Part shown: positions 24,520 to 48,225 of the stretch, piece after piece | Position numbering within the stretch: position 1 is the first letter of the stretch | Layout: every line of letters begins with the position of its first letter | NCBI GenBank assembly: GCA_902769185.1 | Contig: CACXNV010000001.1 | Span: 4,021 to 68,020, forward strand | Reading direction: 5' to 3' | Length of the DNA: 64,000 nucleotides | DNA from: an uncultured Erysipelotrichaceae bacterium | Lineage (GTDB): Bacteria > Bacillota_I > Bacilli_A > RFN20 > CAG-826 | Made by a program: the position numbers and the translations under genes | The notes under the pieces: generated by a model | Databases searched by the model: none | What the model saw: only the letters and a program-made list of their open reading frames with translations | What the model was told of the DNA's origin: nothing

Positions 24520-24598
24520 TGCCAAAATGGCAAATTTACATAAATTATAATATGCCAAAATGGTAACTTTAATGTTGACAAGATATGCCAAAATGGTA
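24520..24598 (+). promoter_or_regulatory. Three phased palindromic operator boxes overlapping the MNT/HEPN promoter
   Basis: TGCCAAAATGGCA at 24520, and TGCCAAAATGGTA at 24553 and 24586, with exactly 33-bp spacing. TTGACA at 24575-24580 lies between boxes 2 and 3. Confidence 0.55.
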
Positions 24599-24610
24599 AA
24601 TTATAAGTGT

Positions 24611-32342: not shown

Positions 32343-33479
32343 ATGGAAGACAATCAAGAAAAGAAAGTAATTAATTTAGATCCGTTAAAAAAGGGTAAAC
32401 GTATCCTATTATTTTTAGCTGATTATTTTATTGATTTTATTCTGGGATTTCTACTTTTTGTAGTCATGGTTTATCCTTTAGGAAAGGTAATGACTGGTTT
32501 TAGCGCTAAAAAGGATGTTTATAACGCTAATCTAGAATTACGTGGTCAAATATTAATTGGGAGTAAAATAATTCATAATTCCCATGATGTAGATATTTAT
32601 AATATCTCATATAATGTTGACTTTACATCTGATTGCTTTTTATCTTATTACGCATTTGATGAAGAAAGTCCTTCTAATATGCGCTACAACCAATTTGGAC
32701 ATAAGGAAGATAATAAAGTTTTTCATACTTATTTCATCAATATCTTGGGGGACGAAAATAAATTTATTACTTTGTTCGATAAGTATAATGAGAAGTTCTC
32801 TTATTTTGAAAGAAGTGGAGTCAACTTAACTTTAAAAAGTGAAATTAGAAATCAAGTTAAACCAAACTTCATTAAAGGAGAAGAATGCTCCCAAGTTGGT
32901 AAGGAATATGTTTCTAAAATAAAGAGCTCTGTATATTTACCAATGTTTTCCGAAATAATGGAATCGATTAAGACTTCAGATCTAATTTTTGAAGACCATT
33001 CTTATAATCAAACTCAATCGGCGATTATAGGTTATGAGAAATTTACATTAAACCTTATTACTGCGACAGCGCTTATTGCGGTATTTTTATCTTCATCAGT
33101 TGTATACTTAATCATTCCTTTATGTAATAAGGGACGAAAAACTATTGGTATGTTTATTATGAATATTGAAGTGGTAAATATTCGCTCTTTGGGCTATTTG
33201 AAAAAAAGAGAACAAGTTCTGAGATTTATTTATTCGCTTTTCCAAGTATTTCTGATTTCATTTTTTGTACCAATGACTTCTATTCCATTTGTAGAAATGT
33301 TTAGAATTCAATTGCTATTTATTATTTTGCTATTCTCATTGGCGTTTATGCTTATAAACATGACAGTTATATTATTTGACCAATACAATAGATCGTTATT
33401 TGATCGCTTATTAGGGGTGATTCATTTAAAGACTGCTGATTTAGATGAAGTTTATCGTGCAAAAGGATATTATCTATAA
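32343..33479 (+). CDS. RDD-family-like membrane protein with a large extracytoplasmic loop (paralog 1)
   Basis: N-terminal ILLFLADYFIDFILGFLL helix and C-terminal GRKTIGMFIMNIEVV motif, with the same architecture as the next gene. Confidence 0.4.
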   Translation: MEDNQEKKVINLDPLKKGKRILLFLADYFIDFILGFLLFVVMVYPLGKVMTGFSAKKDVYNANLELRGQILIGSKIIHNSHDVDIYNISYNVDFTSDCFLSYYAFDEESPSNMRYNQFGHKEDNKVFHTYFINILGDENKFITLFDKYNEKFSYFERSGVNLTLKSEIRNQVKPNFIKGEECSQVGKEYVSKIKSSVYLPMFSEIMESIKTSDLIFEDHSYNQTQSAIIGYEKFTLNLITATALIAVFLSSSVVYLIIPLCNKGRKTIGMFIMNIEVVNIRSLGYLKKREQVLRFIYSLFQVFLISFFVPMTSIPFVEMFRIQLLFIILLFSLAFMLINMTVILFDQYNRSLFDRLLGVIHLKTADLDEVYRAKGYYL

Positions 33480-33480
33480 T

Positions 33481-34524
33481 ATGAATGACGAGAATGTTGA
33501 AAATATTAATGTTGTAGAAGAAAACACGATAAGCAATGAAATCAATATTAATTATCGAAGACCAAAATTCGCACATCGAGTTTTAGCTAATCTTATCGAT
33601 TTAATTCTTTTTGCTTTAGCTTTTATTGGCTTCTTTTCTTTATCTCGTTATCTAGTAAGTTTAACTCCTCATCACTCCAGAACTTTCGCTACTGTTAATC
33701 AAATGCGACTTGATAGTGGTTTATATAGAGAAGATAACGGTCAAATGATTGATATCGTTTCATATATGAACATTAGTAATGTTTTAACAAATGAAGGTAA
33801 GGTTGTTTTATCAGAATTTAGCATTAAAAAGTTCTTCACTTTTGAAAAGGATTATCTTTCTTTAGACCGTTATACTCAAATGAGCGAGAAATATGATAAC
33901 GATCGCTTAGAAAAGACATATGTCGAAAATTCGGTCACATATCATCTTTTTGAAAAAAATGGTGATAATGAAATTGTTAAAAATAACGACTTTTATGAAG
34001 GACATAAATACGTATATCGTGATTTTTATTTGGACTATATTGATCGATATTTTCAAGGTTATTTTTCAACAACTCCGGCTTATTACGAAGCTACTAGAAT
34101 CTTATTCTATTATTTAGTGTTCCTTGATGTTCCAGTTTCGATTATCTTAAGTGTTGTATTTGTATATTACGTCCCAACCCTTTTCTTTAGAAGAGGCAGA
34201 AGAACTTTAGGAAAAGCATTATACCGAATTGGAACAGTTGATATGAGATTCCTTTCACCTCGATTTGGACGTAATACCGCTAGATGGGCATTATTCCTTT
34301 TGGAGGTTATTCTTGGAATTTGCTCTTTAGGTATAATTTTTATCCTTTCATTTACGATGATGGCGTTTTCTAAAAACAAACAAGGATTTCCGGATTATAT
34401 TCTTGGATTACAAGAAATTGATACATCAAATAACAAAATTTATTACTCATATGAAGAGATTGAATTAAATGATGTTGAGCGACACAAACGTCCTACTGAT
34501 TTTAGGTTAATTCAGCGTCCATAG
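33481..34524 (+). CDS. RDD-family membrane protein (paralog 2)
   Basis: FAHRVLANLIDLILFALAF and RRGRRTLGKALYRIGTV motifs. I prefer the ATG at 33481, just after the upstream stop, to the overlapping 33445. Confidence 0.5.
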   Translation: MNDENVENINVVEENTISNEININYRRPKFAHRVLANLIDLILFALAFIGFFSLSRYLVSLTPHHSRTFATVNQMRLDSGLYREDNGQMIDIVSYMNISNVLTNEGKVVLSEFSIKKFFTFEKDYLSLDRYTQMSEKYDNDRLEKTYVENSVTYHLFEKNGDNEIVKNNDFYEGHKYVYRDFYLDYIDRYFQGYFSTTPAYYEATRILFYYLVFLDVPVSIILSVVFVYYVPTLFFRRGRRTLGKALYRIGTVDMRFLSPRFGRNTARWALFLLEVILGICSLGIIFILSFTMMAFSKNKQGFPDYILGLQEIDTSNNKIYYSYEEIELNDVERHKRPTDFRLIQRP

Positions 34525-34560
34525 TCGTTTTCAAAACTCCTATTAATATTTATTTATTAA

Positions 34561-34589
34561 TTGCCTATATTTTAGTTGTTGACTATAAT
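34561..34589 (+). promoter_or_regulatory. Putative promoter of the nine-gene surface/ABC/nuclease operon
   Basis: TTGCCT, 17 nt spacer, TATAAT. Confidence 0.45.
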
Positions 34590-34643
34590 AATAGTGTCTT
34601 TATGATTCACACAATAAGAAAATTGTTGGAGGTCACGAAATCC

Positions 34644-36719
34644 ATGAAAAAGATTTTTTTCAAGTTGTCCATAAGTGCATTTTCTTTTGCTATCATATCT
34701 GTTTTAGGCATTGTAATCAGCACTCAAAGCAGCAAACCTGCTATTTTAAATGCTGATGGGGGAGCAACAGAAACCGCTCCTGATTTTACTGGTGAAGTAG
34801 AATTTAACGTTGGAGATATGTCTGTTAATGCAACTAGCTCCTCCCAAACCAATTTCTCTACTTCATACCAAATTACTTACTCAACTGGTGGTAAAGCCAT
34901 TGTTGATAATGCTTTAGGTGGTAGTTTTGTCAATGTCATTGGTGATGTTGTTGATGGCGAGGACGCTTTAATTAAGCGTGCTACTGAGATTCACAACTTA
35001 CCAGCTGATGAACAAGAAGCAATGCATTATTTAGTGGAAATTGGTGAATTAGAAACTGAACTTTATGATGGTCATGTTTTTAGATTTAATTCCCAAAAAA
35101 CCGACGTTTTTGTTCCAGAAACCATTTCTCGTGGTACTTATGACTGGGATTCAATTTTCGATGTTAATGTTGTTTCTATTTTAGATAACGCCTTTACATC
35201 TACTGCCTTTGTTGAAAAATTGTATATTCCTGATACTGTTGAAGTTATTTCTGCTGAAGCATTTGTAAAGGCTCCAAATCTATCTGATATCTATGTCGAA
35301 TTTAATGAAAGCGATATTCCTGTTGGATGGGCAGAAGGCTGGAATGCAGGAAAAACTGTTCATTATGGTATAGAAGACATTTATTCTTACGCTCCTATTT
35401 CCTCTCAAAGTGGTTATCGCCATCCATCTTTTACACAATTCAGCACAGTTGGTGACGATTCAATAAACTATATGTTTGGTTATGTTCCAAGAGATGAATC
35501 TAAGGGTAATTATCCAATCACTGTCGAATATAAGCTTATTGGTGACAATAAAGTTTATTTCTTACCGATAGAGAAAACTAACCCTACTACTGATTATGAT
35601 AGTGTTGGCGGTGGTATTGGTACTGGTGCTTCAACTAACAAGTATACCAATTCTTTCTTTATTGATATTGATATCAATTATGGTGAAGAGGTTGATTTTG
35701 AATCAATTGTCATTCATAACATCTTTAAAGCTAAGAGCGATAGTTCTTCTGGCTCATTAGTGTGGACTCCTGATTTTGATCATCGTTATTATGTCAAACC
35801 TGGTCATGCATTTAGTAGAGTAAACTATTTAGAAGATTTTGTTTCTATTGAGTTCAAAACAGTTTCAGCTTTTGCTGGATATTCTTCAGTCTCGGCCAGT
35901 GTTTCTAAAATTAATTCTGGTCTTGATGTTTATAAAGCAAACAAGGAATATTATTACAATATCTATAAAGATAACCTTGAAAACGGCAGCGCTTATATTC
36001 GTTATCGTTTAACTCAATTAAACAAGGCTTCTTATTTAGTGGATGCAGGAAATGGACAAATTGAAATTGATCCTGCTACCGAAGTTACTCAATATATCAT
36101 TAAAAAGAATTTAAATAACACCCTCGGCTTCGTCTACAAAAACTCTAGCCTTGGATTAAATAGTTATTCCGTTAAAGACGTGAAATCATTCGCGATTAAA
36201 GGTATGACTATTACTATCGATGTTGTCAATAACGGCAGCATTATCAAGTCAAGTTATAAGACCGCAAGATTTGGTATTATTTTCATCAAAGCACCTGTTG
36301 ATGCTGCAAAAACATTTAATGCTGATTTACTTGTTATCTTATTAGCGGTTGGTTATACCGGACTAGCTTTAATTATTGCAACAACATTATTCTTTGTTTA
36401 TAAAAAGATTTATAGGAATGACGAATTTAAGAGATTAAAACCAAAACAATTTATTAGAAAAGCTATTATTTATTGGGCTACTTCTCTAGCTATTGTTCTT
36501 GCTCTAACATTTATCATTTTAAGAAATACTGCATTTACGGCTGCAATTGCTGTTTATAATCCGGTTGACACATTTATTGTTATCTTTGGCATCGCGTCCA
36601 TTATTATTCTTGGATACTATGTCAGAAATATGATTATTGCTACTAAAGCAAGACGACAAAAGAAAAAAGCAACCAAACTCGGACTTCTTGATGAAGTGGC
36701 CGATGATGGTACTAAATAA
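34644..36719 (+). CDS. Surface protein with BspA-type leucine-rich repeats, an N-terminal signal anchor and C-terminal TM helices
   Basis: VVSILDNAF....VEKLYIPDTVEVISAEAFVKAPNLSDIYV matches the LRR_5 pattern. There are three C-terminal hydrophobic helices, and GGAGG precedes the ATG at 34644. Confidence 0.4.
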   Translation: MKKIFFKLSISAFSFAIISVLGIVISTQSSKPAILNADGGATETAPDFTGEVEFNVGDMSVNATSSSQTNFSTSYQITYSTGGKAIVDNALGGSFVNVIGDVVDGEDALIKRATEIHNLPADEQEAMHYLVEIGELETELYDGHVFRFNSQKTDVFVPETISRGTYDWDSIFDVNVVSILDNAFTSTAFVEKLYIPDTVEVISAEAFVKAPNLSDIYVEFNESDIPVGWAEGWNAGKTVHYGIEDIYSYAPISSQSGYRHPSFTQFSTVGDDSINYMFGYVPRDESKGNYPITVEYKLIGDNKVYFLPIEKTNPTTDYDSVGGGIGTGASTNKYTNSFFIDIDINYGEEVDFESIVIHNIFKAKSDSSSGSLVWTPDFDHRYYVKPGHAFSRVNYLEDFVSIEFKTVSAFAGYSSVSASVSKINSGLDVYKANKEYYYNIYKDNLENGSAYIRYRLTQLNKASYLVDAGNGQIEIDPATEVTQYIIKKNLNNTLGFVYKNSSLGLNSYSVKDVKSFAIKGMTITIDVVNNGSIIKSSYKTARFGIIFIKAPVDAAKTFNADLLVILLAVGYTGLALIIATTLFFVYKKIYRNDEFKRLKPKQFIRKAIIYWATSLAIVLALTFIILRNTAFTAAIAVYNPVDTFIVIFGIASIIILGYYVRNMIIATKARRQKKKATKLGLLDEVADDGTK

Positions 36720-36736
36720 AGTTAGGAGTTTAAATT

Positions 36737-38647
36737 ATGGAAATTAGAATTAAGAACTTAACCAAAATTTTCCCTGGTGACGCCAAAAAGAACATTCGTG
36801 ACACAATCGCTGTTAAAGATTTAGATTTTACAGTCGATGATGGTACTCTTGTTGGTTTATTAGGGCCTTCTGGATGTGGTAAATCTACAACTCTTTATAT
36901 GATTAGTGGTTTACAGACACCAACATCTGGCGAAGTATGGTTTGGTGATCAAGAAGTTACTAACTTGTCTCCAGAAAAAAGAGGTATTGGTTTAGTTTTC
37001 CAAAACTATGCTTTATATCCTCATATGACTATTTTCAAAAATATTGAATTCCCACTTACAAATTTAAAGGTTGAAATTCCTTTAGTTACCTTCTTTAATT
37101 TCGATTTTGATTATGAATATAAGCTAAATGAATCTGATGTACCAGATGGTATTATTAAGAGTTTAGTTTCTTTGTTAAAGAAGATTGGTTTAAAAAGAAA
37201 ACAATTCGATATCAAACACGAAGTAGTGGATGGTTTATTAAAAGTGCACGTTCAAATTAAGAATGTTTCTACCGCAGTTAGAGATATGTTCAAACTTAAT
37301 ATGGAACGTATTGTTAAATTCAAACTCGTTAGTGAATCTGAAGTCCAAACAAGCGACGCTTTATATGACTCCACAATTAGAGCGGTTGTTGGTAAGAGAT
37401 TTGATAACGAAACCCTTGATGTTACTTTAAGAGCTAGACTCCCTAAAGAATTTACGACCGATCATTTAGATGAAACTATTAATGCTTTCAAGTCTATTGC
37501 CTCTAAATATGGTAAAGCTGGTGAATGTATTATCTCTAGAGGTCAACACGGTTATGAAATCATGGGTCGTGTTTTAAGAGTTTTATCCAGCAAGAAAGAT
37601 GAATTCGCTGCTGAAGCTGTTGCTGAATTACAACTCTCTAATGAGAACGTTATTGTTAATGAAGCTTATAACCATGAAGTTGATCGCGTAATTAAAGATT
37701 TCTTTAAAGCGAAGAAAATGAAATTTACTGACTATAAGTTATATTTTGATAAGACCTATACACGTATTTATTTCAAATTACATAGAACAAAAACTGAAGA
37801 TGCTAAGAGTGCAGTCGAAGAACTTGGTAAACTCCTTGAACTCGATAAAGTTGAATTCGATGTTGCTCAAGCTATCGCCCATAGAGCGTTAACCAAAGAA
37901 GAAAGAAGAGATATCGTTTACGATACTGCTAAACTTGTTCAAGTCGACGAATATCTTGAAAGAAAACCATCTCAATTATCTGGTGGTCAACAACAACGTG
38001 TCGCTATTGCTCGTGCTTTAGTTAAACACCCACGCGTTTTATTATTAGATGAACCGTTATCTAACTTAGACGCTAGATTAAGATTACAAACTCGTGAAGA
38101 AATTAGACGTATTCAACAAGAAACAAAAATTACTTCTGTCTTCGTTACCCACGACCAAGAAGAAGCGATGTCTATTTCTGATCAAATCGTCGTTATGAAA
38201 CTTGGTGTTATGCAACAAATGGGTAAACCTCAAGAAGTTTATAACTCTCCTGCAAACTTATTTGTTGCTCAATTCTTAGGAACTCCACCAATTAATGTCT
38301 TTAAAGGACGAGTTGATGGCAAAAAAGTCATCATTGGAGAAGATGTCGTCCATGAATTAGGCGAAGACTTAGGCAAAAAAGATGTCTGGGTTGCTATTCG
38401 ACCAGAAGGATTTATTTTAGCTAAACCAAGCGACAAAAACGTTTTACACGCTAATTGTGAAATGATTCAAGTTATGGGACGTGATATTTCCGTTGTTGCT
38501 AATAACGAACAATGTACTAAACCAACATTTAAGGCGATTATTTCTGCTGATGATGATGTCAAAGCTGGACCAGTTGCCTTTAAAATTAAACCTCACAAAA
38601 TATTCATTTTTGATAGTGAAACTGAAGAGAGAATTTATACAAAATAA
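36737..38647 (+). CDS. ABC transporter ATP-binding protein (MalK/UgpC type) with a roughly 270-aa insertion inside the NBD
   Basis: Walker A GPSGCGKST, Q-loop VFQNYALYPHMT, then an insertion, then LSGGQQQRVAIARAL, LLLDEPLSNLD, VTHDQ and a C-terminal regulatory (TOBE-like) domain. Confidence 0.9.
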   Translation: MEIRIKNLTKIFPGDAKKNIRDTIAVKDLDFTVDDGTLVGLLGPSGCGKSTTLYMISGLQTPTSGEVWFGDQEVTNLSPEKRGIGLVFQNYALYPHMTIFKNIEFPLTNLKVEIPLVTFFNFDFDYEYKLNESDVPDGIIKSLVSLLKKIGLKRKQFDIKHEVVDGLLKVHVQIKNVSTAVRDMFKLNMERIVKFKLVSESEVQTSDALYDSTIRAVVGKRFDNETLDVTLRARLPKEFTTDHLDETINAFKSIASKYGKAGECIISRGQHGYEIMGRVLRVLSSKKDEFAAEAVAELQLSNENVIVNEAYNHEVDRVIKDFFKAKKMKFTDYKLYFDKTYTRIYFKLHRTKTEDAKSAVEELGKLLELDKVEFDVAQAIAHRALTKEERRDIVYDTAKLVQVDEYLERKPSQLSGGQQQRVAIARALVKHPRVLLLDEPLSNLDARLRLQTREEIRRIQQETKITSVFVTHDQEEAMSISDQIVVMKLGVMQQMGKPQEVYNSPANLFVAQFLGTPPINVFKGRVDGKKVIIGEDVVHELGEDLGKKDVWVAIRPEGFILAKPSDKNVLHANCEMIQVMGRDISVVANNEQCTKPTFKAIISADDDVKAGPVAFKIKPHKIFIFDSETEERIYTK

Positions 38648-38661
38648 TAGGAGGCTTTAAC

Positions 38662-39780
38662 ATGTGGAATAAAATCCTTACATTCTTACATATTAAGAAA
38701 AAGAAACAAGTTGAAGTCGCTAGCAACGGTCTTTTGGTTGCAGAACCGGAAGTTCGTCCAGAATATGTAGAAGGATACTATGAAGAAAGCGATACGATTA
38801 TTCGTTTGGTTTCTAATAAAAAGAAAAAGAACCAAAAGGCGTATCAAATTACTGGTATTGATGATGTAGCCGCTACAAATAACTGGAAAGGTTGGCTATA
38901 TTTAGCTCCTGTTATTGTTTTGATTGCTGTCTTCTTGTTATATCCATTAGTGAATACCATTTTCATTTCTTTTGCTAAGGACTATGAATACGCTACTGGA
39001 CATTTTTCTGGTGTTACCTTAGATAACTTTGGACAAATCTTTGGTATTACCACTGCTGGAAAAGGCGGAAAAGAAGTATTCTTTACTCAATACGCGATTC
39101 CAAATACATTAATTATCACATTTGTTACAGTCCCTGTTTCAATTGTCTTAGCATTAATTATTTCTGTCGCTTTAAACAGTATTAAATGGTTCCAAAAGAC
39201 ATTACAAACAATGTTCTTCCTCCCTTACGTTACTAACGCTATGGCGGTTGGTCTTGTTTTCTCTGTCTTGTTCCAAGAAAAAGGTATTATTAATTACATC
39301 TTTGGCATTAACAAAGCATGGATTTTCGCAGCTGATCGTTGGGACGCTATGCTTCCATTATGTTTATTCATTATTTGGAACTCAATTCCATTTAAGATTT
39401 TAATCTTCCTTTCTGGACTTCAAGGCATTGATAAGCAGTACTATCAAGCTGCCCAAATTGATAGCTGTCCAAAATGGAAAGTTTTAACAAAGATTACTGT
39501 TCCATTACTATCTCCTCAAATTTTATACATTATGATCACAAGCTTTATTGGATCATTTAAGGAATATACTTCTGTTGTTGCCTTATTTAATGGTCCTGGT
39601 ACTTATGGTGCCGCTAGTGCTAGTGATCCTAACATGGAAACTATTGTTTATTACGTTTACGCAAACGTTGAAGCTGGATTTACAAGTAGAGCCGCTGCTG
39701 CCGGTGTCTTCCTATTTGTAATTGTCTTGGTGTTTACTTTCATTCAAATGAAGGTATCCAAGTCAAGAGTCCATTATTAA
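38662..39780 (+). CDS. ABC transporter permease (MalF/UgpA type)
   Basis: Six TM helices and an EAA-loop region (AAQIDSCPKWKVLTKITVPLLSP). Confidence 0.85.
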   Translation: MWNKILTFLHIKKKKQVEVASNGLLVAEPEVRPEYVEGYYEESDTIIRLVSNKKKKNQKAYQITGIDDVAATNNWKGWLYLAPVIVLIAVFLLYPLVNTIFISFAKDYEYATGHFSGVTLDNFGQIFGITTAGKGGKEVFFTQYAIPNTLIITFVTVPVSIVLALIISVALNSIKWFQKTLQTMFFLPYVTNAMAVGLVFSVLFQEKGIINYIFGINKAWIFAADRWDAMLPLCLFIIWNSIPFKILIFLSGLQGIDKQYYQAAQIDSCPKWKVLTKITVPLLSPQILYIMITSFIGSFKEYTSVVALFNGPGTYGAASASDPNMETIVYYVYANVEAGFTSRAAAAGVFLFVIVLVFTFIQMKVSKSRVHY

Positions 39781-39792
39781 GGTGGTGATATT

Positions 39793-40776
39793 ATGGCATT
39801 TGCATTATTTAAGAAAAGCGAAAATCAATATATCAACTTTAGAAAAGTTAAAGTTAATAACAACATTGTTTTATCTATTGAAGAAGCCGGAAAAACCACT
39901 GAGGCTATTAAATCAACAGAAAAAGTAGTGAAGATTATTACCACGATTTTAACTTATGCCTTTATTTTAGCTTTAGCTTTAATTGTCGTATTCCCATTCT
40001 ATTGGATGATTATTACTTCTTTAAAGCAAAGGGCAGAAATTGAACAAATCAATCAAACATTCTTCCCTAATGTTGTAATGTGGTCTAACTACGCTTATGT
40101 TTTCCAAGTATTTGATTTCTCAACTTATATGGGCAACACCATTGTTGTTGCGATTTTCTCTACTTTAGGTACATTGATTACTACAATCTTTGCCGCTTTC
40201 GCGTTCTCTAGATTGAGATTTAAAGGACGTGACACTGTCTTCTTTGTCTTCTTAATGACAATGATGATTCCTGGCGAAATGATGGTTATTTCTAACTATT
40301 TGACCGTTTCGGCATTTGGCTGGATTAAAGATCAAACTCGTACCGATGCTTATTTAGCAATGGTTATTCCATTTATGGTCAGTGTTTTCCATATTTACTT
40401 GTTAAGACAAAACTTCAAACAAATTCCTGATGCTTTATATCTTGCTGCTAAAGTTGACGGTAAGAGCGATTGGGACTTCTTATGGAAAGTAATGGTTCCT
40501 CTTGCAGCACCAACTCTTATTTCTATTACTATTTTAAAATTCATGGGAACATGGAACTCCTATGTGTGGCCAAACTTAGTTACCAAAAAAGAAGCTTTCC
40601 GTTTAATTTCTAACGGATTAAGAGGTGCGGCATTCAATGATCCTGATAGTGGCATTATTGAATACGGTTATCAAATGGCAGCATCAGTTTGCGTTACCGT
40701 TCCATTATTCTTATTATTCGTCTTCTTCCGCAAGTACATCATGAAAGGTGTTGGAAGAGCAGGTATTAAAGGTTAA
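39793..40776 (+). CDS. ABC transporter permease (MalG/UgpE type)
   Basis: EAA-loop AAKVDGKSDWDFLWKVMVPLAAP in a polytopic protein. Confidence 0.85.
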   Translation: MAFALFKKSENQYINFRKVKVNNNIVLSIEEAGKTTEAIKSTEKVVKIITTILTYAFILALALIVVFPFYWMIITSLKQRAEIEQINQTFFPNVVMWSNYAYVFQVFDFSTYMGNTIVVAIFSTLGTLITTIFAAFAFSRLRFKGRDTVFFVFLMTMMIPGEMMVISNYLTVSAFGWIKDQTRTDAYLAMVIPFMVSVFHIYLLRQNFKQIPDALYLAAKVDGKSDWDFLWKVMVPLAAPTLISITILKFMGTWNSYVWPNLVTKKEAFRLISNGLRGAAFNDPDSGIIEYGYQMAASVCVTVPLFLLFVFFRKYIMKGVGRAGIKG

Positions 40777-40820
40777 TTATTTTGCTTTGCAAATAATTAT
40801 AAATTACTAGAGGTAAAATT

Positions 40821-42299
40821 ATGAAAAGAAAAAACCTATTATTTAATTCGTTAGTTGCCGTTGGTGCACTAACAATTGTTGGTTGTGGAGGTGGTGGATC
40901 TGAGCCTACTCCTACCGGACCTATTAACATTTACGTTCATTGCCAATATGGTAAAGGACCTAGAGGACTACTTGATCAGTTTGCTACTGAATTTAACACG
41001 GCTAACAAGCAATATAACGTCATTGTTGATCAAGAGATTTCTGGTACTTATAAGGATGTATTTGGTAAAGAAAAATTATTCTTACAAGACCAAGCTAGCG
41101 ACGACTGGGGAGATTTAGTTGTTTGCTATCCTGACCATGTTGTTGATTATATGATGACATTCAAGGCTGCTGCGGACTTATCTGGTCTTATTAACGATCC
41201 TGAAATTGGTATTTCTACTAAGGATATGAATGATTTTACTGAATCAGCACGTGACCAATTCTCTATTGAATTCCCAAAATCTGGTAAATACGTATTACCT
41301 TTCTCAACATCTACAGAATGTATGTTCTATAATCCTGCTGTTTTAGGTATTCAAATTGAAGGCGTTAATGGCGGAGAGCCAATTGATGAGGATTACATCA
41401 ATTCCTTAACTTGGGATGAATTTTTAGGTAATTTCGCTCCAAAATTTAAAGACTATAACGCTGGACTTGAAAAGAAAATTTGGAATCCTGACGGAAATGA
41501 AAATTATGGACTTCTTGGGGTTAGAGATGAAGATAACTTCTTTATCACTCTTTGTGAACAACATGGTTACTCATATACACACGTTGATGAAGTTACCGCT
41601 GATGCATCAATCGATTTTAACGTTAAAGGTGTTAGAGATCTAACTAAGAGATTCGCTCAAGCTAAGGCTGATCACTATTTCATTACCGATGGCTCTGTAC
41701 AAGGCGGTATTTCTAGCTGGTTTAAAACTTGTCAATGTTTATTCTACATTGGTTCTACCGGTGGTATTCAATATACTCAAACTGCTATTGAAGGCGTTGA
41801 TTGGGAAATTGAATGTGGACGTTTACCACAAGCTAGCAATGAAATTTCAAGACAAAAAATGATTTCTCAAGGTGGTTCCTGGTGCATTTTAAAACACGCT
41901 CAATATACTGAACAAAGAATTAGAGGAGCATGGCTTTTCTATAAATACATTACTGAAGAAAAACAATGCTTAAGATGGGCAGCTACTTCTGGATATTATC
42001 CAATTCGTAAGACTGTTACTTCTAAACCTGCATGGGGCAAAGTTATTGATGAATACGATGAAGATGGTAACATGAAAACTGGTATTGATTTATTAACTGC
42101 ACGTAACGCAAAATACTGTGCTACTTATGACAACATCTTATTCACAAATGATGTATTTATTGGTTCTGCATATTGTAGAGAACAAGTTGAATCTTTATTT
42201 GTTAAGATTCTTACTGCTTCTCCAGCAGAATACGGAGACGATGAATGGTTATTAAGTCAGTTCGACGCTACGGTCACTGAAATTAAGAAAAATATGTAA
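40821..42299 (+). CDS. Lipoprotein, ABC substrate-binding protein (family 1 type), copy 1
   Basis: Lipobox VGCGGGGS, a size of about 490 aa, and a position after the permeases. Confidence 0.7.
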   Translation: MKRKNLLFNSLVAVGALTIVGCGGGGSEPTPTGPINIYVHCQYGKGPRGLLDQFATEFNTANKQYNVIVDQEISGTYKDVFGKEKLFLQDQASDDWGDLVVCYPDHVVDYMMTFKAAADLSGLINDPEIGISTKDMNDFTESARDQFSIEFPKSGKYVLPFSTSTECMFYNPAVLGIQIEGVNGGEPIDEDYINSLTWDEFLGNFAPKFKDYNAGLEKKIWNPDGNENYGLLGVRDEDNFFITLCEQHGYSYTHVDEVTADASIDFNVKGVRDLTKRFAQAKADHYFITDGSVQGGISSWFKTCQCLFYIGSTGGIQYTQTAIEGVDWEIECGRLPQASNEISRQKMISQGGSWCILKHAQYTEQRIRGAWLFYKYITEEKQCLRWAATSGYYPIRKTVTSKPAWGKVIDEYDEDGNMKTGIDLLTARNAKYCATYDNILFTNDVFIGSAYCREQVESLFVKILTASPAEYGDDEWLLSQFDATVTEIKKNM

Positions 42300-42316
42300 T
42301 ATTGGAGGAAAATATT

Positions 42317-43807
42317 ATGAAAGCAAATAAATTATTATTACTTGCAAGTACAATTCTTGCAGCATCCACATTAGCCGGATGTGGTGGTGGTTCTAGTGAT
42401 GATGGAACTATCAAAATAACCTTTGACCATACATTTGGTGAAGGCATTGAAAAAGGCGTTGCAGCTCAATTTGCAAAATTCAAGAGCATCGTTGAGGCTC
42501 ATGATAATGTTAAACTTGAACTTATTATGCCACCTGCAATGACCTATAAGGCTATTGTTGATACTGTTGGCATGGAATTAACTACTGGTGGTCCAACTAT
42601 GACAGTTGCTTATCCTGATCACGTTGCTTCTTTACAAGCTAGAGAAGGAACTGCAGGACGTTGGATTGTGGATATGGATCCATATATGAAAAGTAGCGAA
42701 GTTGGTTTAGGTAAAGAAAGCTGGCTTGGTGAAAGACCTGCTTGGGATGAAAATGATATTATTCCTACTTATTTAAAAGAAGGCCAAGAATTTGCCAGAA
42801 CTGGTACTTATTGCTTACCATTCATGAAATCAACTGAAATTCTTCAATATAACGCTGATGTTGTTCTTCAAGCACTTGCTAAATATAGCAAAACTAAAGA
42901 AATGGATGCTACTCAAAAACAAACCTTCCTTTCAAGCATGTCATTTGAAGAAATGATGGAAATTGCTCAAATTATTGAGGATAACAAAGTTGAATTCCAA
43001 TGTCCAGACTTAGAAAACGTCGTTTTCTACGATTCTGATTCTAACATGGCGATTACTCAACTTATTCAAAATGGATTAGTTTATTCTGATTTTAAAGACG
43101 GTCAACCAATTCTTGGCTTAGACGCCAGCGAAGCTTCTATGAGTGAAAATGTTACTAGAGCTAAAACTCTTTTACAAAAAATAAGAAATTGGGGCAAATC
43201 TGGTTTATTAACCACAAAAGCCGCTTATGGTAACTACTCATCTACATCATTCAAATCTCGTAAATGTATCTTTATCGTTGGTTCATCTGGTGGTGCTGGA
43301 TATTCAGTTCCTGATGAAGGCGATTTCAATACCGGTTACGCTAGAGTCCCATATTTTGGAACCGACGCTTTACATCCTGATTATGTTAGTCAAGGTCCAA
43401 GCATTGCTTTCCTTAGAGACACCTCTGTTTCTAATGAAGTCAATGAACTTAGATTAAAATATGCTTGGAAATTCTATAAATATTTAATTATGCCAAACAC
43501 TAACGTTGCTCTTACAGTTAATGACTCTCAAGGTTATGTACCTATCAGAAAGTCTGCTTATGCAACTCCTACTTGGGGTAAAATTATTTCTCCTGATACC
43601 GAATCCGGTGAAGAAATTACTTATTACACCCACACCGCTAATGTTGTTCAATCAATTGATTATCACTTCTATAGCACCAAAGTGTTCAAAGGTAGTGATA
43701 AATATCGTGAAAATGTGACTACTGCGGTTAAAGATCTTATTAAATCTGATGATTCTATTGATGACATTTTAGCTACGCTCGTTAGAGAAACAAAGAAATT
43801 CATGTAA
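42317..43807 (+). CDS. Lipoprotein, ABC substrate-binding protein, copy 2
   Basis: Lipobox LAGCGGGSS, and a layout similar to copy 1 (LPFMKSTEILQYN compared with LPFSTSTECMFYN). GGAGG precedes the ATG at 42317. Confidence 0.7.
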   Translation: MKANKLLLLASTILAASTLAGCGGGSSDDGTIKITFDHTFGEGIEKGVAAQFAKFKSIVEAHDNVKLELIMPPAMTYKAIVDTVGMELTTGGPTMTVAYPDHVASLQAREGTAGRWIVDMDPYMKSSEVGLGKESWLGERPAWDENDIIPTYLKEGQEFARTGTYCLPFMKSTEILQYNADVVLQALAKYSKTKEMDATQKQTFLSSMSFEEMMEIAQIIEDNKVEFQCPDLENVVFYDSDSNMAITQLIQNGLVYSDFKDGQPILGLDASEASMSENVTRAKTLLQKIRNWGKSGLLTTKAAYGNYSSTSFKSRKCIFIVGSSGGAGYSVPDEGDFNTGYARVPYFGTDALHPDYVSQGPSIAFLRDTSVSNEVNELRLKYAWKFYKYLIMPNTNVALTVNDSQGYVPIRKSAYATPTWGKIISPDTESGEEITYYTHTANVVQSIDYHFYSTKVFKGSDKYRENVTTAVKDLIKSDDSIDDILATLVRETKKFM

Positions 43808-43825
43808 TCGAAAGGAGACGCTTAT

Positions 43826-45349
43826 ATGAAAATGATTAAAAAGACAATCCTAGCCGCTACAATTTCAATGCTTGGTATTGGTGTTGTATCTTGTGGTGGT
43901 GGAAATTCTCAACCAACAAAAGTCGATTATGTTCATGATGGCTCTTGTAGCTTAACTATCGACTACGAAGGTAAAGATTTCTATAAAGACGGTATTGGTC
44001 AATTTGACTTATGGACATGTATTGATGGAGATACTGCTCACTTTTCTCCATTAGTTACGTCAACTAGCCGTGCAATCGTAAAATCTCGTTTCTATGGTGT
44101 TGATACTCCTGAATCTACTGGTAGAGTTCAACCTTATGGTAAACCTGCTTCCGATTTTACTAAAAAACATTTAAAAAACGCTGCTGAAAACGGAACTATA
44201 GTCGTTGCTTGCTATAGTAACGAATATAAAGATCCAACGGCCCATAAAGATGGTAACGATCGTTATTTATCTTGTATTTGGATTAACGAAGAAAGAAAGA
44301 ATGCACCATATGATACCTTAGTAAACCTTAACTTATGGCTTGTCCAAGAAGGCTATTCAGGTATTAGCAGTCTTGATGATATGCCTGAATATAAGAGTGT
44401 CTTCTTAGCCGCTTTGTCTCAAGCTAAAGCATTAAAACTTAACATGCACTCTGGTCTTCCTGATCCAACATTTAACTATGGTGATTATGAAGAAGCCTAT
44501 ATTCCTGATATTTGCCGTGAAATTAATAAACAATTAAAAGATCCAACTTACGATAATCCTTATGATGGCAAGAAAGTAAGAATTGAAGGAACTGTTGTTG
44601 GTTATAGTGCTGGTACATTGTATATGCAAAAATATGATGACCCAGAATTTGTCAATCCTGAAACAGGCGAACACGGAGATGGAAAATATTATTCCATTAA
44701 CATCTTCTGTGGTATGCAGGTTATTCCTGGAAAATATCGTGCCTTTGGTGCAGTTTTAAGATTAAACGGACTATGCAAGGATAGCGATGAATTTGGTTTC
44801 CAAATTACTGACGTTGAGTCCCATTTCCCAAAACTAGACGATGAAGAATATTTATCTGAAAGTGATGTTAGAGTTTTAGTCCCTGCATCTCAAAATACCG
44901 AAGACCCACTTTTAATGCCTTATGTTAATTATTTAACTGCTGCAGAACTATCTCAAATCGCTACCGAAGAAGATTTATCTATCTTAAATTCTCCAGTTTC
45001 CTTAGTTAAAACTAGCGGACAAAAAGCTGAACATGAATCTGATTTAGATCCAGTTACTGTTAAAAGATGTAAACCAAATTCATTAAATAATAAATGGACT
45101 ATCCAATTATATGATGTGAAATTTGATTTATATGTAACTACCGCATTTAGAGGTGACCCTACTACTGGTGCAAACTGGGACACCGATGAAGAATGGAAAG
45201 ACAAGAGAATGGGAGTTAATCTAGGCGTTTATACCTATCACGCATTTAACGATGATGATGGTGGAAAGACCTATAATTACCAAATCGTCTTCTCTTCTGT
45301 AAATAATGGCGAATTACTTTGGTTAGATCGTCCAATCATCGGTGAATAA
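43826..45349 (+). CDS. Lipoprotein with a staphylococcal (thermo)nuclease domain plus a roughly 300-aa C-terminal extension
   Basis: Lipobox VSCGGGNS. SNase motifs: DGDTAHF and RFYGVDTPES..R..PYG..A. Confidence 0.75.
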   Translation: MKMIKKTILAATISMLGIGVVSCGGGNSQPTKVDYVHDGSCSLTIDYEGKDFYKDGIGQFDLWTCIDGDTAHFSPLVTSTSRAIVKSRFYGVDTPESTGRVQPYGKPASDFTKKHLKNAAENGTIVVACYSNEYKDPTAHKDGNDRYLSCIWINEERKNAPYDTLVNLNLWLVQEGYSGISSLDDMPEYKSVFLAALSQAKALKLNMHSGLPDPTFNYGDYEEAYIPDICREINKQLKDPTYDNPYDGKKVRIEGTVVGYSAGTLYMQKYDDPEFVNPETGEHGDGKYYSINIFCGMQVIPGKYRAFGAVLRLNGLCKDSDEFGFQITDVESHFPKLDDEEYLSESDVRVLVPASQNTEDPLLMPYVNYLTAAELSQIATEEDLSILNSPVSLVKTSGQKAEHESDLDPVTVKRCKPNSLNNKWTIQLYDVKFDLYVTTAFRGDPTTGANWDTDEEWKDKRMGVNLGVYTYHAFNDDDGGKTYNYQIVFSSVNNGELLWLDRPIIGE

Positions 45350-45358
45350 GGAGGTATC

Positions 45359-45835
45359 ATGTATTGTTATCACTGCGGATATAAAATAGATCAAAACAAG
45401 ATTGAGGCCAAAAAATCTAGTAGAGAACAATTCATTGAATCTGCCTCTTTAGATTCAAAAATCAATTATGTTTGTCCTCGTTGTGGACATTTAATTCACG
45501 AAGGCTTTGACGAAAAGGATGCAAAATCCCTTTCCGTTGCTTGCCACGCTGAATTACAAAGAGGAAGAAATGACTTGGCTAGAGGAATGTCAGCACTTAT
45601 TATTGCTATCATTCTTGGAATTACTGCCTTCATTTTCCTCTTGTTATCAAGAAAAGCTGATTTACAAATGGCCATCAGCTTTACTTGTCCTGAGTTCTGG
45701 GTTGCGGCCGTTCTCGGGCTTACTGCTGTTATCCTTATAGTGTTCGGAACGTTCTTTACTTCTCGTGGAGCAACTCGTAAAGTACGTTACACCAACCTAT
45801 TAAAAGAGATAAATCAAAAAACTTTCGTTCAATAA
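45359..45835 (+). CDS. Zinc-ribbon membrane protein
   Basis: CYHCG...CPRCG followed by two or three TM helices. It starts 9 nt after the nuclease gene. Confidence 0.5.
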   Translation: MYCYHCGYKIDQNKIEAKKSSREQFIESASLDSKINYVCPRCGHLIHEGFDEKDAKSLSVACHAELQRGRNDLARGMSALIIAIILGITAFIFLLLSRKADLQMAISFTCPEFWVAAVLGLTAVILIVFGTFFTSRGATRKVRYTNLLKEINQKTFVQ

Positions 45836-45889
45836 GTTTATAAAATTGAACAAAATCCAATTTCAAAATTTCTAAAAAGGAGGAAAAAC

Positions 45890-48133
45890 ATGAAAAAAGG
45901 ATTTGTATTTACTGCCTCACTTGCTGCACTCACGTTGGGCTTGGTCGCATGTGGTGGCGGTGGTGGTTCTAACGTCCCTGATGTTAAAATCACAAACAAA
46001 GCTGAACTTCAACTCGATTGGTATGTCGAAGATGATGACCGCGGCATCACTATGCAAATTGAAGGCGTAAGAATTTCTGACGCTATTGATGCTGGTGACT
46101 TAGTTGTTACTTCTAGTAATCCTGCTGTTGCTTCTATCGACCAAACCACATTTAGAAAAGTTCACGCTGAAGGTGCTGGTAAAACCACAATTTCTGCCGT
46201 TTATAAGAATGCGAAATCTGATTCTGTAGAAATCGAAGTTAAATCAAGACCTACTTATAGAGTTGCAACAACTCTTGATCCTGAAAAGGATGATTACAAA
46301 TTAAGATGGTATATTGGACCAAAAGCGTACTATGCTGCTGGTACAAAAGGCCAAGTTGATACCAAGAGCCCATACTATCTAGATCCTGCTGAAAATCTTG
46401 ATACTGCCATGGATTTATCTGTTGCTGTTGAAGATGTTGAAGGCGATTACAAATATTCAATTACCTTCTCTAACGGTAGCACTATCGGACAAAAAAGAGA
46501 TGCTTCTCACTGCAATATCGGATTTACCAGTGAAACTGGTTATGCCAAAACTTTATTTAAATTAAATTCTGACTATTCATTATCTTGTCTTATCCCTGTT
46601 GGTGAATCTGCTCCAACCGCAGCTGATGAATATTTCTTAGCTGTTTATGGTGGCACTAATACAAAACGTCTTGCCTTCCAAAAAGGCACAGGCATCCCTG
46701 CTGTTGGTTATGCAAGAATTATTGAATTAGGTGATCCAATTCCTGCTACTAGTGTTACACTTAGCGAAACTGAATTAACATTAAAAGATGGTCAAGCTGC
46801 TAAATTAACCGCTACCATCGAACCAGCAATCTCAACTGACGTGGTTTCTTGGGAATCAAGTGCTCCAACCACTGCTTATGTTGAAGATGGCAGAATTTGG
46901 GCTTTAAAAGAAGGCGAAGCTACTATTACCGCAACTGCTGGTAAAGTCTCTGCTTCCTGTAAAGTTACTATCTCTGGTGCCTTAAATTATGGTAGTGAAG
47001 AAGAACCATTAACTCCAGAACAAGCCCATGATTTAATTGCTGAAAACTTTGCTGATGGTTCTCAAACCGTCAAGATGTTATATGTCCGTGGCGTTGCTGA
47101 AGCTGTTAATAAGACATATCAAAGTGGCGACAATGTCACCGTCAATTTACGTAAAACTGATGGTTCATATGAAGCCAAATATATGACCTTCTACGGTGCT
47201 TTACCAGAAGAAGGCGTTGCTACTCCTGAAGCAGATGACACAGTCGTTGCTAAAGGTTATGCAAAAGTCTATAGCAATGAATACGAATTAGCTCCAGGAA
47301 AAGCTCCTGCTGCTACAAGTAACACTAACCCATCAATTATTAGCGTTACTAAAGCCGTTCCACCAACCTTAGAAGATATCGAAATTAGTGGTGTTGCTTC
47401 TGTTAATTTATACGGCAAAACTGAAGCTCAAACAGTTCAATTGACTGCTGCACCAGTTCCTGCAAAGGCAGCTTTAGGCACAGTTAGTTGGCAATCTAGT
47501 GATGAGGCTGTCACAGTTTCTGAAGCTGGATTAGTTACTATTCCATTAGATTATGTTGCTGAAGGTGGCGATTCCAAGACTGTTACATTTACTGCTTCAA
47601 ATGGCACTGTAACCAGTTCTGAAGCCTTCTCTATCGTTGTTAAAAACGAAGAAGAAGTTGCACCTGTTGAGCCTGTAGTTTTAACAAAAGAATCTATTAC
47701 TATGCTTGACGAATCTCAATCATCAACATATGCAAAATATAATGGCGTTCACGATTTCACTGACTATGCTTTTAGTACAACTTCTGTCATGCCAAATACA
47801 TATGCTGCACAATCTCTTGATGTAATTCAATTCAAAGCTAAAGAAGGTACATTAACTTTCACAAAAGGTGCATTCACAAAAGTTACTCTTAAAGTCTATT
47901 CAACATATGATTGGGATTTAACAATTGGTGTTAATGGAAATTATGGTGATAATACTCAAATGAATGCTAATAGAGTAGAAACTGAATACTACACCGAGTC
48001 CAGTGGAAAACAATATAAAGTTTATCTTTATACATTAGAAGTTACACTCGAAGGCGCAACCGAAGGTATTACCATTACCAAACACCCAAGCAAACAAGGT
48101 GCTGGTTACGTTCAATCTATTACTCTTGCATAA
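45890..48133 (+). CDS. Large lipoprotein with bacterial Ig-like (Big_2) domains
   Basis: Lipobox VACGGGGGS. Big_2 signature segments (e.g. VTLSETELTLKDGQAAKLTATIEP...VSWESS....A.V..G.I.ALKEGEATITA). Confidence 0.7.
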   Translation: MKKGFVFTASLAALTLGLVACGGGGGSNVPDVKITNKAELQLDWYVEDDDRGITMQIEGVRISDAIDAGDLVVTSSNPAVASIDQTTFRKVHAEGAGKTTISAVYKNAKSDSVEIEVKSRPTYRVATTLDPEKDDYKLRWYIGPKAYYAAGTKGQVDTKSPYYLDPAENLDTAMDLSVAVEDVEGDYKYSITFSNGSTIGQKRDASHCNIGFTSETGYAKTLFKLNSDYSLSCLIPVGESAPTAADEYFLAVYGGTNTKRLAFQKGTGIPAVGYARIIELGDPIPATSVTLSETELTLKDGQAAKLTATIEPAISTDVVSWESSAPTTAYVEDGRIWALKEGEATITATAGKVSASCKVTISGALNYGSEEEPLTPEQAHDLIAENFADGSQTVKMLYVRGVAEAVNKTYQSGDNVTVNLRKTDGSYEAKYMTFYGALPEEGVATPEADDTVVAKGYAKVYSNEYELAPGKAPAATSNTNPSIISVTKAVPPTLEDIEISGVASVNLYGKTEAQTVQLTAAPVPAKAALGTVSWQSSDEAVTVSEAGLVTIPLDYVAEGGDSKTVTFTASNGTVTSSEAFSIVVKNEEEVAPVEPVVLTKESITMLDESQSSTYAKYNGVHDFTDYAFSTTSVMPNTYAAQSLDVIQFKAKEGTLTFTKGAFTKVTLKVYSTYDWDLTIGVNGNYGDNTQMNANRVETEYYTESSGKQYKVYLYTLEVTLEGATEGITITKHPSKQGAGYVQSITLA

Positions 48134-48155
48134 TTAATATCAAGCCTTTTATACT

Positions 48156-48179
48156 AGGGGGTCTTTGGACCTCCTTTTA
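48156..48179 (+). terminator. Operon terminator
   Basis: Stem aggggGtc / gacctcct, 8 bp with one G.U, loop tttg, followed by ttt. Confidence 0.7.
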
Positions 48180-48225
48180 TAATAGACTTTAAACTGTTAT
48201 AATTTTTAAGAGGATTTAATTTGTT

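Follow-up and report, generated by a model that had tools for sequence, protein, structure and literature searches.

A conserved nuclease-transporter operon in an uncultured rumen and gut lineage of Bacilli and its candidate role in the uptake of nucleic-acid fragments

The nine-gene operon and its conservation

We analysed a stretch of 64,000 nucleotides (hereafter the window) from contig CACXNV010000001.1 of an uncultured Erysipelotrichaceae bacterium (assembly GCA_902769185.1). It contains a candidate operon of nine genes, in which a surface nuclease of the staphylococcal nuclease (SNase) type is combined with an ATP-binding cassette (ABC) transporter, two substrate-binding proteins (SBP1 and SBP2) and three further membrane and surface proteins (Table 1). 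The original prediction for this locus described the nine genes as a co-directional unit that captures, degrades and imports extracellular nucleic acid. All nine open reading frames (ORFs) were found at the expected places on the plus strand, 34644-48133 with two corrected starts. The start of gene 1 is most likely 34644, on which a GAGGT site and metagenome gene calls agree; 34602 is the less likely alternative. For gene 6 the probable start is ATG 42317, which is preceded by a GGAGG site and chosen in metagenome gene calls, and not TTG 42302. TAA is the stop codon of all nine genes, and the ORFs of the window are intact under translation table 11. Public sources hold only automatic names for the window's proteins.

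GGAGG-like sites precede each of genes 2-9. With the corrected starts the eight intergenic gaps are 17, 14, 12, 44, 17, 18, 9 and 54 nt, and the corresponding cross-species medians are 17, 13, 12, 57, 43.5, 14, 19 and 51.5 nt. The only consistently long gap is the one before gene 1 (median 115 nt, minimum 69 nt in 52 genomes), and the conservation of this gap across species supports the placement of the promoter there. The TTGCCT-17-TATAAT site originally proposed as the promoter is present at 34561-34589. However, motifs of this type do not exceed chance frequency in the A+T-rich region (62 observed versus 70.9 +/- 6.8 expected from shuffled sequences), and thus the motif alone is no evidence. 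The terminator at 48156 was borne out, as none of 200 shuffled sequences was equally stable. Inside the operon, terminator-like matches are weak, with stems of 5-6 bp, and occur at chance frequency (11 found, 8.4 +/- 3.0 expected). The nine genes probably form one transcription unit starting from gene 1, for which the pattern of gaps is the best evidence.

Relatives of the nuclease were found in 192 genomes when one genome per species was scanned for 185,579 species. The loci of the best 80 of these 192 relatives were fetched, and conservation of the module was counted in these; gene order was counted in the 67 loci whose sequence extends 9 kb or more upstream of the nuclease gene. Genes 1-6 precede the nuclease gene in the same order and orientation in all 67 loci, and gene 8 is present in 66 of them, at a median distance of 19 nt after the nuclease gene. 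This strictly conserved order supports the view that nuclease and Ugp-like importer work as a functional unit. The ABC core of the ATPase is more than 90% identical across 70 species. The permeases are 55-79% (gene 3) and 68-83% (gene 4) identical in other species representatives, and both are 99% identical in the near-identical locus L007. The cytoplasmic and membrane core is thus extremely conserved, whereas the exposed proteins and an insertion in the ATPase diverge fast.

A protein identical to the window's nuclease is encoded on many metagenome contigs, each of which carries the same nine genes; the names of their records suggest cattle rumen as the source. The closest relative locus is that of "Bacillales bacterium UBA3835", with 96% identity to the nuclease. 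The other hosts come from rumen and gut and are either uncultured "Bacilli" or genomes with the label Erysipelotrichaceae; among them are Ca. Onthovivens, Ca. Enterosoma and Clostridium sp. CAG:288. The last shares its name with CAG-288, a family within order RFN20 for which absence of peptidoglycan is predicted (PMC10868615). A node ancestral to Mycoplasmatales and RFN20 has been reconstructed, and its monophyletic group also holds RF39, ML615J-28, Acholeplasmatales and Erysipelotrichales (PMC10868615). The hosts of the module are an uncultured rumen and gut lineage of Bacilli related to Mollicutes.

Table 1. Coordinates of the operon, its signals and its upstream neighbours in the window.
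Feature	Position	Strand	Details
Promoter-like region, two overlapping sigma-70-type candidates	34561..34606	+	TTGCCT-17-TATAAT (34561-34589), TTGACT-16-TATGAT (34579-34606)
Gene 1, integral membrane protein, 691 aa	34644..36719	+	start with GAGGT ribosome-binding site
Gene 2, UgpC/MalK-type ABC ATPase, 636 aa	36737..38647	+	Walker A, LSGGQ, Walker B, H-loop, C-terminal regulatory domain
ATPase insertion, ~260 aa, helical subdomain, residues ~113-372	37073..37852	+	splits ABC model matches
Gene 3, UgpA/MalF-like permease	38662..39780	+	BPD_transp_1; six predicted transmembrane segments
Gene 4, UgpE/MalG-like permease	39793..40776	+	BPD_transp_1; six predicted transmembrane segments
Gene 5, substrate-binding lipoprotein SBP1	40821..42299	+	SBP_bac_8; lipobox IVGC
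Gene 6, substrate-binding lipoprotein SBP2, 496 aa	42317..43807	+	SBP_bac_8; lipobox LAGC; GGAGG site
Gene 7, surface lipoprotein nuclease, ~500 aa	43826..45349	+	SNase domain residues ~60-210; lipobox VVSC
Nuclease C-terminal extension, ~300 aa	44456-45346	+	no Pfam or PDB relative
Gene 8, membrane protein, 158 aa	45359..45835	+	N-terminal four-Cys zinc ribbon (CxxC...CPxC), two transmembrane segments
Gene 9, acidic Big_2 lipoprotein, 747 aa	45890..48133	+	lipobox LVAC
Gene 9 conserved module, ~100 aa, residues 367-466	46988-47287	+	family comparison
Intrinsic terminator	48156..48185	+	8-bp stem, 5 G-C pairs, -19.3 kcal/mol, z = -3.33
Two tandem RDD-family membrane protein genes	32343..34524	+	upstream neighbours of operon

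The nuclease, the transporter and the accessory proteins

The assignment of gene 7 as an SNase-domain lipoprotein was confirmed. The protein matches PF00565 at residues 88-207 (40.2 bits, cutoff 21), and the profile of its family matches staphylococcal nuclease chains at ~1e-8. In an explicit alignment the SNase residues D21, R35, D40, T41, E43 and R87 correspond to D69, R88, D93, T94, E96 and R146 of the window protein. All six catalytic and Ca2+-binding residues are invariant in 76/76 family sequences, so the calcium site on which the original prediction depended is complete. Nuclease activity of gene 7 is predicted from this intact active site. The 500-aa architecture represents a large metagenomic family. 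Searches of Pfam, PDB sequences and Foldseek with the C-terminal extension gave nothing significant. The extension had been read by eye as similar to the oligonucleotide/oligosaccharide-binding (OB) fold, which is unsupported, and its homology to the conserved module of gene 9 was rejected (hhalign probability 0.4%).

In three loci (L046, L053, L084) the nuclease is longer and carries two C-terminal copies of the gene 9 module (residues ~477-815). Immunoglobulin-like domains Big_2 or Big_3 are fused to the metagenome nuclease homologues P0024, P0025 and P0051, and likewise to the SBP1 homologues P0139, P0141, P0163-P0170 and others. In this system, immunoglobulin-like modules seem to serve as exchangeable spacers.

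All parts of an importer of the CUT1 carbohydrate-uptake ABC family are present: two BPD_transp_1 permeases, as originally predicted, an ATPase of the MalK/UgpC type with a C-terminal regulatory domain, and binding proteins. The best NCBIfam matches of genes 2, 3 and 4 are UgpC, UgpA and UgpE, but all three cutoffs are missed (346.8 versus 432 bits, 71.9 versus 335 and 101.3 versus 297, respectively). Gene 2 matches the UgpC model in two stretches, of which residues 374-633 align to positions 95-355 of 357; the large insertion in a MalK-like ATPase was thus confirmed as a split of about 260 aa. The insertion has no Pfam match, and no significant match was found in Pfam, PDB-sequence or Foldseek searches. 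It is poorly conserved relative to the ABC core. A single-sequence exhaustive search of 1.84 billion proteins gave 13 matching representatives. The insertion could not be linked to the mycoplasma ATPases through them. Candidate internal repeats were rejected (best self-match E ~0.03).

The lipoproteins encoded by genes 5, 6, 7 and 9 have canonical lipoboxes, defined here as [LVI][ASTVI][GAS]C at the end of the signal peptide, followed in each case by a Gly-rich linker. SBP1 and SBP2 match SBP_bac_8 and are 25% identical, which agrees with their description as two paralogous substrate-binding lipoproteins. By sequence, both belong to the UgpB branch of the CUT1 family. The SBP1 profile matches UgpB at 2.5e-18, the dinucleotide-binding protein of Thermus thermophilus (PDB entries 7C0x) at 4e-17 and Mycobacterium tuberculosis UgpB at ~1e-15, with sugar binders at 1e-7 or weaker. 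For the SBP2 profile 7C0x is the best match (3.6e-18), far ahead of E. coli UgpB (1.5e-10) and M. tuberculosis UgpB (8.5e-4); among solved structures no sugar binder was matched at 1e-3 or better. The AlphaFold2 (AF2) model of SBP1 has a pLDDT of 90.5, and its top fold matches are UgpB with G1P, the dinucleotide binder, and UgpB with glycerophosphocholine (GPC).

Two tyrosines and two serines that coordinate phosphate are strictly conserved in binders of glycerol phosphate, GPC and the dinucleotide uridylyl-3'-5'-phospho-guanosine (U3G), and are not conserved in glucose binders (PMC12718374). In the same comparison, a Trp pair that clamps glycerol arose only in the small-pocket binders of glycerol phosphate (PMC12718374). 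We mapped these positions after validating the E. coli UgpB sequence against 4AQ4. The UgpB residues Y42, S121, S247 and Y323, as well as G284, are invariant in 71/71 SBP1 and 75/75 SBP2 orthologues, and R374 is kept in 71/71 and 73/75, respectively. The clamp residues are Y77, S164, S312 and Y392 in SBP1, together with G351 and R453, and Y77, S172, S323 and Y407 in SBP2. The Trp pair is absent in both families (W169 is replaced by D/A/S, W172 by F/Y/I/L), and E66 is replaced as well. Oligosaccharide binding, one of the outcomes that would have refuted the original prediction, is thus not what the pocket indicates: it has the phosphate clamp of UgpB, and the nearest solved relatives bind glycerol phosphates, GPC or a dinucleotide. 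None of the refuting outcomes named with that prediction was observed.

The Thermus structures 7C0F/7C0x are titled as an ABC-transporter dinucleotide-binding protein with endogenously bound U3G; the 7C0x entries are attributed to Chandravanshi et al. 2021, FEBS J 288:4614 (via PMC12718374). PDB titles list eight mutated residues of this protein: Y56, F79, N81, S127, Y224, T240, Y246 and Q274. SBP2 is identical at five of them in all orthologues (Y56, S127, Y224, Y246, Q274), and the other three have conservative changes in 100% of orthologues (F79 to Y, N81 to D, T240 to S). In the window, Q359, Y307 and Y329 of SBP2 are among the residues matching mutated positions. At the position of Q274, which is an invariant Gln in SBP2, E. 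coli UgpB has Gly. Among SBP1 orthologues, 77% keep Y224 and 85% keep Y246; the window SBP1 has Gly at the Y224 position. From the conserved residues we concluded that the likely ligand of SBP1 and SBP2 is a phosphate ester or diester that exceeds glycerol phosphate in size.

NCBIfam "P68 family surface lipoprotein" is matched by 36 of 45 members of the SBP1 family (best 2.9e-15). A tie of this match to the mycoplasma lipoproteins P80 and MslA could not be established; in the literature "P68" denotes a P48-like lipoprotein of Mycoplasma bovis.

Gene 1 had been described as a surface protein with leucine-rich repeats and counted among adhesin-like proteins. Neither label was supported: LRR_5 matches one short stretch with 18.2-18.9 bits (cutoff 27.7), and gene 1, which is not demonstrably an adhesin, encodes an integral membrane protein. 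It has four predicted transmembrane helices. The one at the N-terminus is followed by a beta-rich, acidic ectodomain (about 520 aa) and then by three long helices at the C-terminus (model pLDDT 74). Invariant motifs on the predicted cytoplasmic side are an NDEF-R-K-K loop, VYNP-D and a C-terminal DDGT. No Pfam family was found for the protein and none is recorded for any of 16 homologues; its model has no structural neighbour in PDB (TM-score at most 0.11). In all 67 loci gene 1 stands directly upstream of the ATPase gene, with a median gap of 17 nt.

The description of gene 8 as a zinc-ribbon membrane protein was correct: the four cysteines and both membrane segments were found, and the cysteines are kept together with a conserved RGRN motif. 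Its identity is 34-66% in other species representatives and 97% in L007. The JGI/IMG label of this gene, "DNA-directed RNA polymerase subunit RPC12/RpoP", is almost certainly wrong, because the protein has two transmembrane segments and the zinc ribbon triggers the label.

Gene 9 is a Big_2 lipoprotein of the predicted size. A lipoprotein of its family (269-1227 aa) follows gene 8 in 66/75 loci by transitive clustering; the lower count from direct BLAST (29/57 loci), by which the gene seemed optional, was revised. The module of about 100 aa is found in 58/66 family members. It has only sub-threshold matches to OB folds: tRNA_anti-codon in 3/10 members (E 3-6e-4), tRNA_anti_2 (E 0.15), RPA32 (E 0.1) and PDB entry 3F1Z (E 0.28). 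These matches converge on nucleic-acid binders, and the module may be an OB fold. Gene 9 is linked to the nuclease by the domain fusion in the three genomes mentioned above.

Candidate substrates and known systems

Taken together, these data make it probable that the operon serves extracellular nucleic-acid scavenging with import of phosphorylated fragments. Nucleic-acid fragments are the most economical candidate ligand because the nuclease is encoded in the same operon, and we infer them as the transported substrate. A pocket that clamps phosphate, lacks the glycerol clamp and resembles that of a dinucleotide binder points to phosphorylated fragments and not to sugars or free nucleosides. 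SNase chemistry yields 3'-phosphorylated mono-, di- and short oligonucleotides. In the proposed mechanism, the lipid-anchored, Ca2+-dependent nuclease would cut extracellular DNA or RNA at the cell surface. SBP1 and SBP2 would grip the phosphate of a fragment with the two-Tyr/two-Ser clamp, in a pocket larger than that of glycerol-3-phosphate binders, and pass the fragment to the UgpAE-like permease pair (genes 3 and 4), with import powered by the UgpC/MalK-like ATPase (gene 2). Between them, these distant paralogues probably divide the range of substrates, for instance into mono- and dinucleotides or into ribo- and deoxyribo- fragments. Gene 9 would be a hypervariable surface lipoprotein whose core module may keep the polymer near the nuclease, whereas genes 1 and 8 and the ATPase insertion would be obligate lineage-specific accessories. 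All roles given to genes 1, 8 and 9 are conjectural; as a hypothesis only, gene 1, gene 8 and the insertion might act as a joint accessory assembly on the transporter.

A more specific form of this proposal is that the transporter is a dedicated importer of 3'-nucleotides, dinucleotides or short oligonucleotides fed by its own nuclease, that gene 1, gene 8 and the insertion form an undescribed CUT1 accessory assembly, and that the system has common ancestry with the mycoplasma operon. We put it forward tentatively, as possible rather than probable.

Several observations speak against nucleic-acid fragments as the substrate. The tyrosines by which SNase stacks the nucleotide (Y85, Y113, Y115) are not conserved in gene 7. 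The phosphate clamp suits glycerophosphodiesters as well as nucleotides, and the dinucleotide in the Thermus protein is an endogenously bound ligand. Fold E-values alone do not separate SBP1 and SBP2 from cellobiose or maltose binders. Finally, all ectodomains are acidic, which argues against simple electrostatic capture of DNA; such capture by genes 1 and 9, whose ectodomains have net charges of -28 and -37, was rejected. The parts of the original interpretation fared differently. The coupling of nuclease and importer is strongly supported, and the substrate can be sharpened to a phosphate-containing one. Capture is weak, being indicated by the OB-fold hints in gene 9 and the three nuclease fusions, and the concept as such had already been published.

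One alternative is general scavenging of organophosphate and phosphorus, in which the importer takes glycerophosphodiesters or glycerol phosphate from lipid or teichoic-acid turnover, and the nuclease is co-expressed but does not feed it. The Ugp assignments of genes 2-4, the G1P-bound UgpB as the top fold match of SBP1, and the conservation of the clamp and of the glycerol-hydroxyl ligands G284 and R374 all suit this explanation, as do the surface phosphoesterase and phosphatase lipoproteins encoded nearby and the label of putative glycerol-3-phosphate transporter given to MPN134-136 of M. pneumoniae (PMC3178575). However, the Trp169/Trp172 glycerol clamp is absent, E66 is replaced, and no Ugp equivalog cutoff is reached. 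In E-value, the match of SBP2 to the dinucleotide binder is better by about 8 orders of magnitude than its match to E. coli UgpB, and by about 14 orders than that to the GPC binder. The adjacency of nuclease and transporter in 67/67 loci is also tighter than mere co-regulation predicts. We consider this explanation unlikely.

Quite improbable is an ordinary CUT1 importer of sugars or oligosaccharides, the reading given by automatic annotation, with a separate nuclease acting in the remodelling of biofilm or extracellular DNA or in competition. Such an importer would have just these Pfam domains (SBP_bac_8 and BPD_transp_1), the mycoplasma homologues are annotated as "oligosaccharide ABC transporter", and cellobiose and maltodextrin binders occur among the fold matches with E-values like those of UgpB. 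Yet the sequence profiles favour phosphate-ester binders by 8-10 orders of magnitude, the clamp residues missing from glucose binders are invariant here, and no glycoside hydrolase was found within or beside the operon in any fetched locus. It is hardly credible that the surface nuclease is the main function, directed at host, phage or competitor DNA or at extracellular traps, with the ABC and membrane proteins exporting, anchoring or regulating it: mycoplasma SNases are documented as cytotoxic or trap-degrading, and genes 1 and 8, with no assigned role, are strictly linked to the nuclease, but binding-protein-dependent BPD_transp_1 systems are established as importers, a dedicated exporter is not needed for a nuclease with a lipoprotein signal peptide of its own, and the hosts are metagenome-assembled genomes of the rumen and gut commensal type.

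Extracellular nucleic-acid scavenging, the explanation preferred here, has a precedent in mycoplasmas, and the SNase-ABC pairing cited in the original prediction is real (PMC3585158, PMC4045577), with its substrate unproven, as had been stated. The mycoplasma operon was compared by gene content and published description. Its members are the lipoproteins P80/P81/MslA, the SNases MAG_5040, MBOVPG45_0310, MGA_0676, mhp379, MPN133 and MG_186, and the ABC genes MAG_5050-5070, MBOVPG45_0307-0309 and MPN134-136. To our knowledge, the substrate of this nuclease-linked Ugp-like transporter has been discussed since at least 2007 with no direct answer. The M. agalactiae genes for P80 (predicted to be a binding protein of the sugar type), MAG_5040 (the SNase), an ABC ATPase and two permeases are co-transcribed, and import of the nuclease products was proposed by the authors (PMC3585158). 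Genes 0307-0311 of M. bovis were called a putative nucleotide transporter operon, and the M. gallisepticum protein MslA, which is homologous to P81 of M. bovis (gene 0311), was reported to bind single- and double-stranded DNA (PMC4045577). The same transporter was considered a putative glycerol-3-phosphate system by workers on M. pneumoniae (PMC3178575). Since both labels are in use, the substrate in mycoplasmas is unsettled.

The two operons share an SNase lipoprotein gene adjoining a Ugp/CUT1-like importer and a lipoprotein with the binding-protein fold. The ATPase is oversized in both (gene 0309 of M. bovis has 2103 nt; PMC4045577), and the model of degradation outside the cell and import of precursors was proposed in mycoplasmas already. 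However, the order here is ATPase, permeases, binding proteins, nuclease, whereas in mycoplasmas it is lipoprotein, nuclease, ATPase, permeases. Two binding proteins of canonical size (about 470 aa when mature) stand against one lipoprotein of about 80 kDa, genes 1, 8 and 9 are extra and conserved here, and the nuclease here carries the C-terminal extension of about 300 aa. The genes here read intact with table 11, whereas UGA codons had to be corrected in the mycoplasma counterparts (PMC3585158).

The Thermus U3G-binding protein is the closest solved relative of SBP2 and is among the top ones for SBP1. It is only about 15% identical to SBP1 in a structural alignment with the model, and the binding proteins of the operon are lipid-anchored and about 70-100 residues longer. 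In the sources consulted, the Thermus protein is not linked to any nuclease gene. UgpBAEC of E. coli and of marine origin shares the CUT1 architecture, the phosphate clamp, G284 and R374 with the operon, which differs from it in having the 260-aa ATPase insertion, two binding proteins, the linked nuclease and the extra membrane proteins, in lacking the glycerol clamp and E66 of UgpB, and in missing the NCBIfam cutoffs. The catalytic core of staphylococcal nuclease (Nuc) is fully conserved in gene 7, but unlike Nuc the protein is anchored as a lipoprotein, has the C-terminal extension, does not conserve Tyr85, Tyr113 and Tyr115 and is encoded in a transporter operon. Another multidomain surface SNase is YhcR of B. 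subtilis, with OB folds, an SNase domain and a 5'-nucleotidase.

The concept of binding, degradation and import, including DNA binding by MslA, is thus already in the mycoplasma literature, and the module is less new than was implied. What is new is its occurrence in an uncultured rumen and gut lineage of Bacilli, the fixed architecture, the dual binding proteins, two membrane proteins without known function and the lineage-specific 260-aa insertion in the ATPase. Mollicutes and their relatives with reduced genomes depend on outside sources of nucleotides. The pairing of nuclease and importer extends beyond mycoplasma pathogens: across a broad, uncultured lineage of gut and rumen it is a strictly conserved core function. 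The locus also offers an easier route to learning what the mycoplasma-type system transports: since the binding proteins are of canonical size and the genes read with table 11 and end with TAA, direct expression in E. coli is feasible. Gene 1, gene 8 and the insertion are candidates for accessory components not previously described in an ABC importer. If import of phosphorylated fragments holds, extracellular DNA and RNA would be directly imported nutrients in rumen and gut ecosystems. If, further, the transporter is a dedicated importer of such fragments with ancestry common to the mycoplasma operon, the long-sought route of intact-nucleotide uptake in Mollicutes-type bacteria would be identified.

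Neighbouring genes

An RDD-family gene is found near the module in 57/67 loci, upstream in 52 and shifted downstream in 5, which suggests that it is functionally tied to the module. In the window the two RDD genes (32343-33479 and 33445-34524) overlap by 35 nt and are probably transcribed as a unit of their own. Three genes upstream of the operon lies a gene for a lipoprotein with fn3 and Y_phosphatase3 domains (31149-32297). Its homologues are immediately downstream of the module in four other loci (L008:14962-16407, L020:14435-15682, L046:14632-15789, L053:14625-15857). This lipoprotein may be a surface phosphatase acting on nuclease products.

The 5'-nucleotidase at 22515 was included in the original scavenging theme. 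It is indeed a surface phosphoesterase of the 5'/3'-nucleotidase type, a lipoprotein with Metallophos and 5_nucleotid_C domains (22515-24479) whose best NCBIfam match, below the cutoff, is 2',3'-cyclic-nucleotide phosphodiesterase/3'-nucleotidase/5'-nucleotidase. However, its tie to the operon is thematic only, because it lies 12 kb away. A gene for a zinc-ribbon transmembrane protein (21933-22439) is directly upstream of it, and this gene pair mirrors the zinc-ribbon/nuclease pair of genes 8 and 7. The match between the two zinc-ribbon proteins was too weak for them to be considered paralogues (E 0.003).

The G+C content of the operon (34001-48000) is 0.33-0.39, compared with 0.29-0.32 in the immediate flanks. 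No signs of mobile elements were seen at the operon, and the neighbouring genes are syntenic in related genomes.

Elsewhere in the window, a gene of the Mur-ligase family (4715-5935) is followed by an overlapping 256-aa ORF without a Pfam match (5922-6692); the pair is of interest if this organism comes from a lineage predicted to lack peptidoglycan. An ORF of 1179 aa (57238-60777) has no Pfam match at E <= 1e-4. Genes resembling toxin-antitoxin systems encode a protein with helix-turn-helix and nucleotidyltransferase (Polbeta/NTP_transf_2) domains at 24560-25078 and a nucleotidyltransferase of the DUF2204/AbiEii type at 55306-56046.

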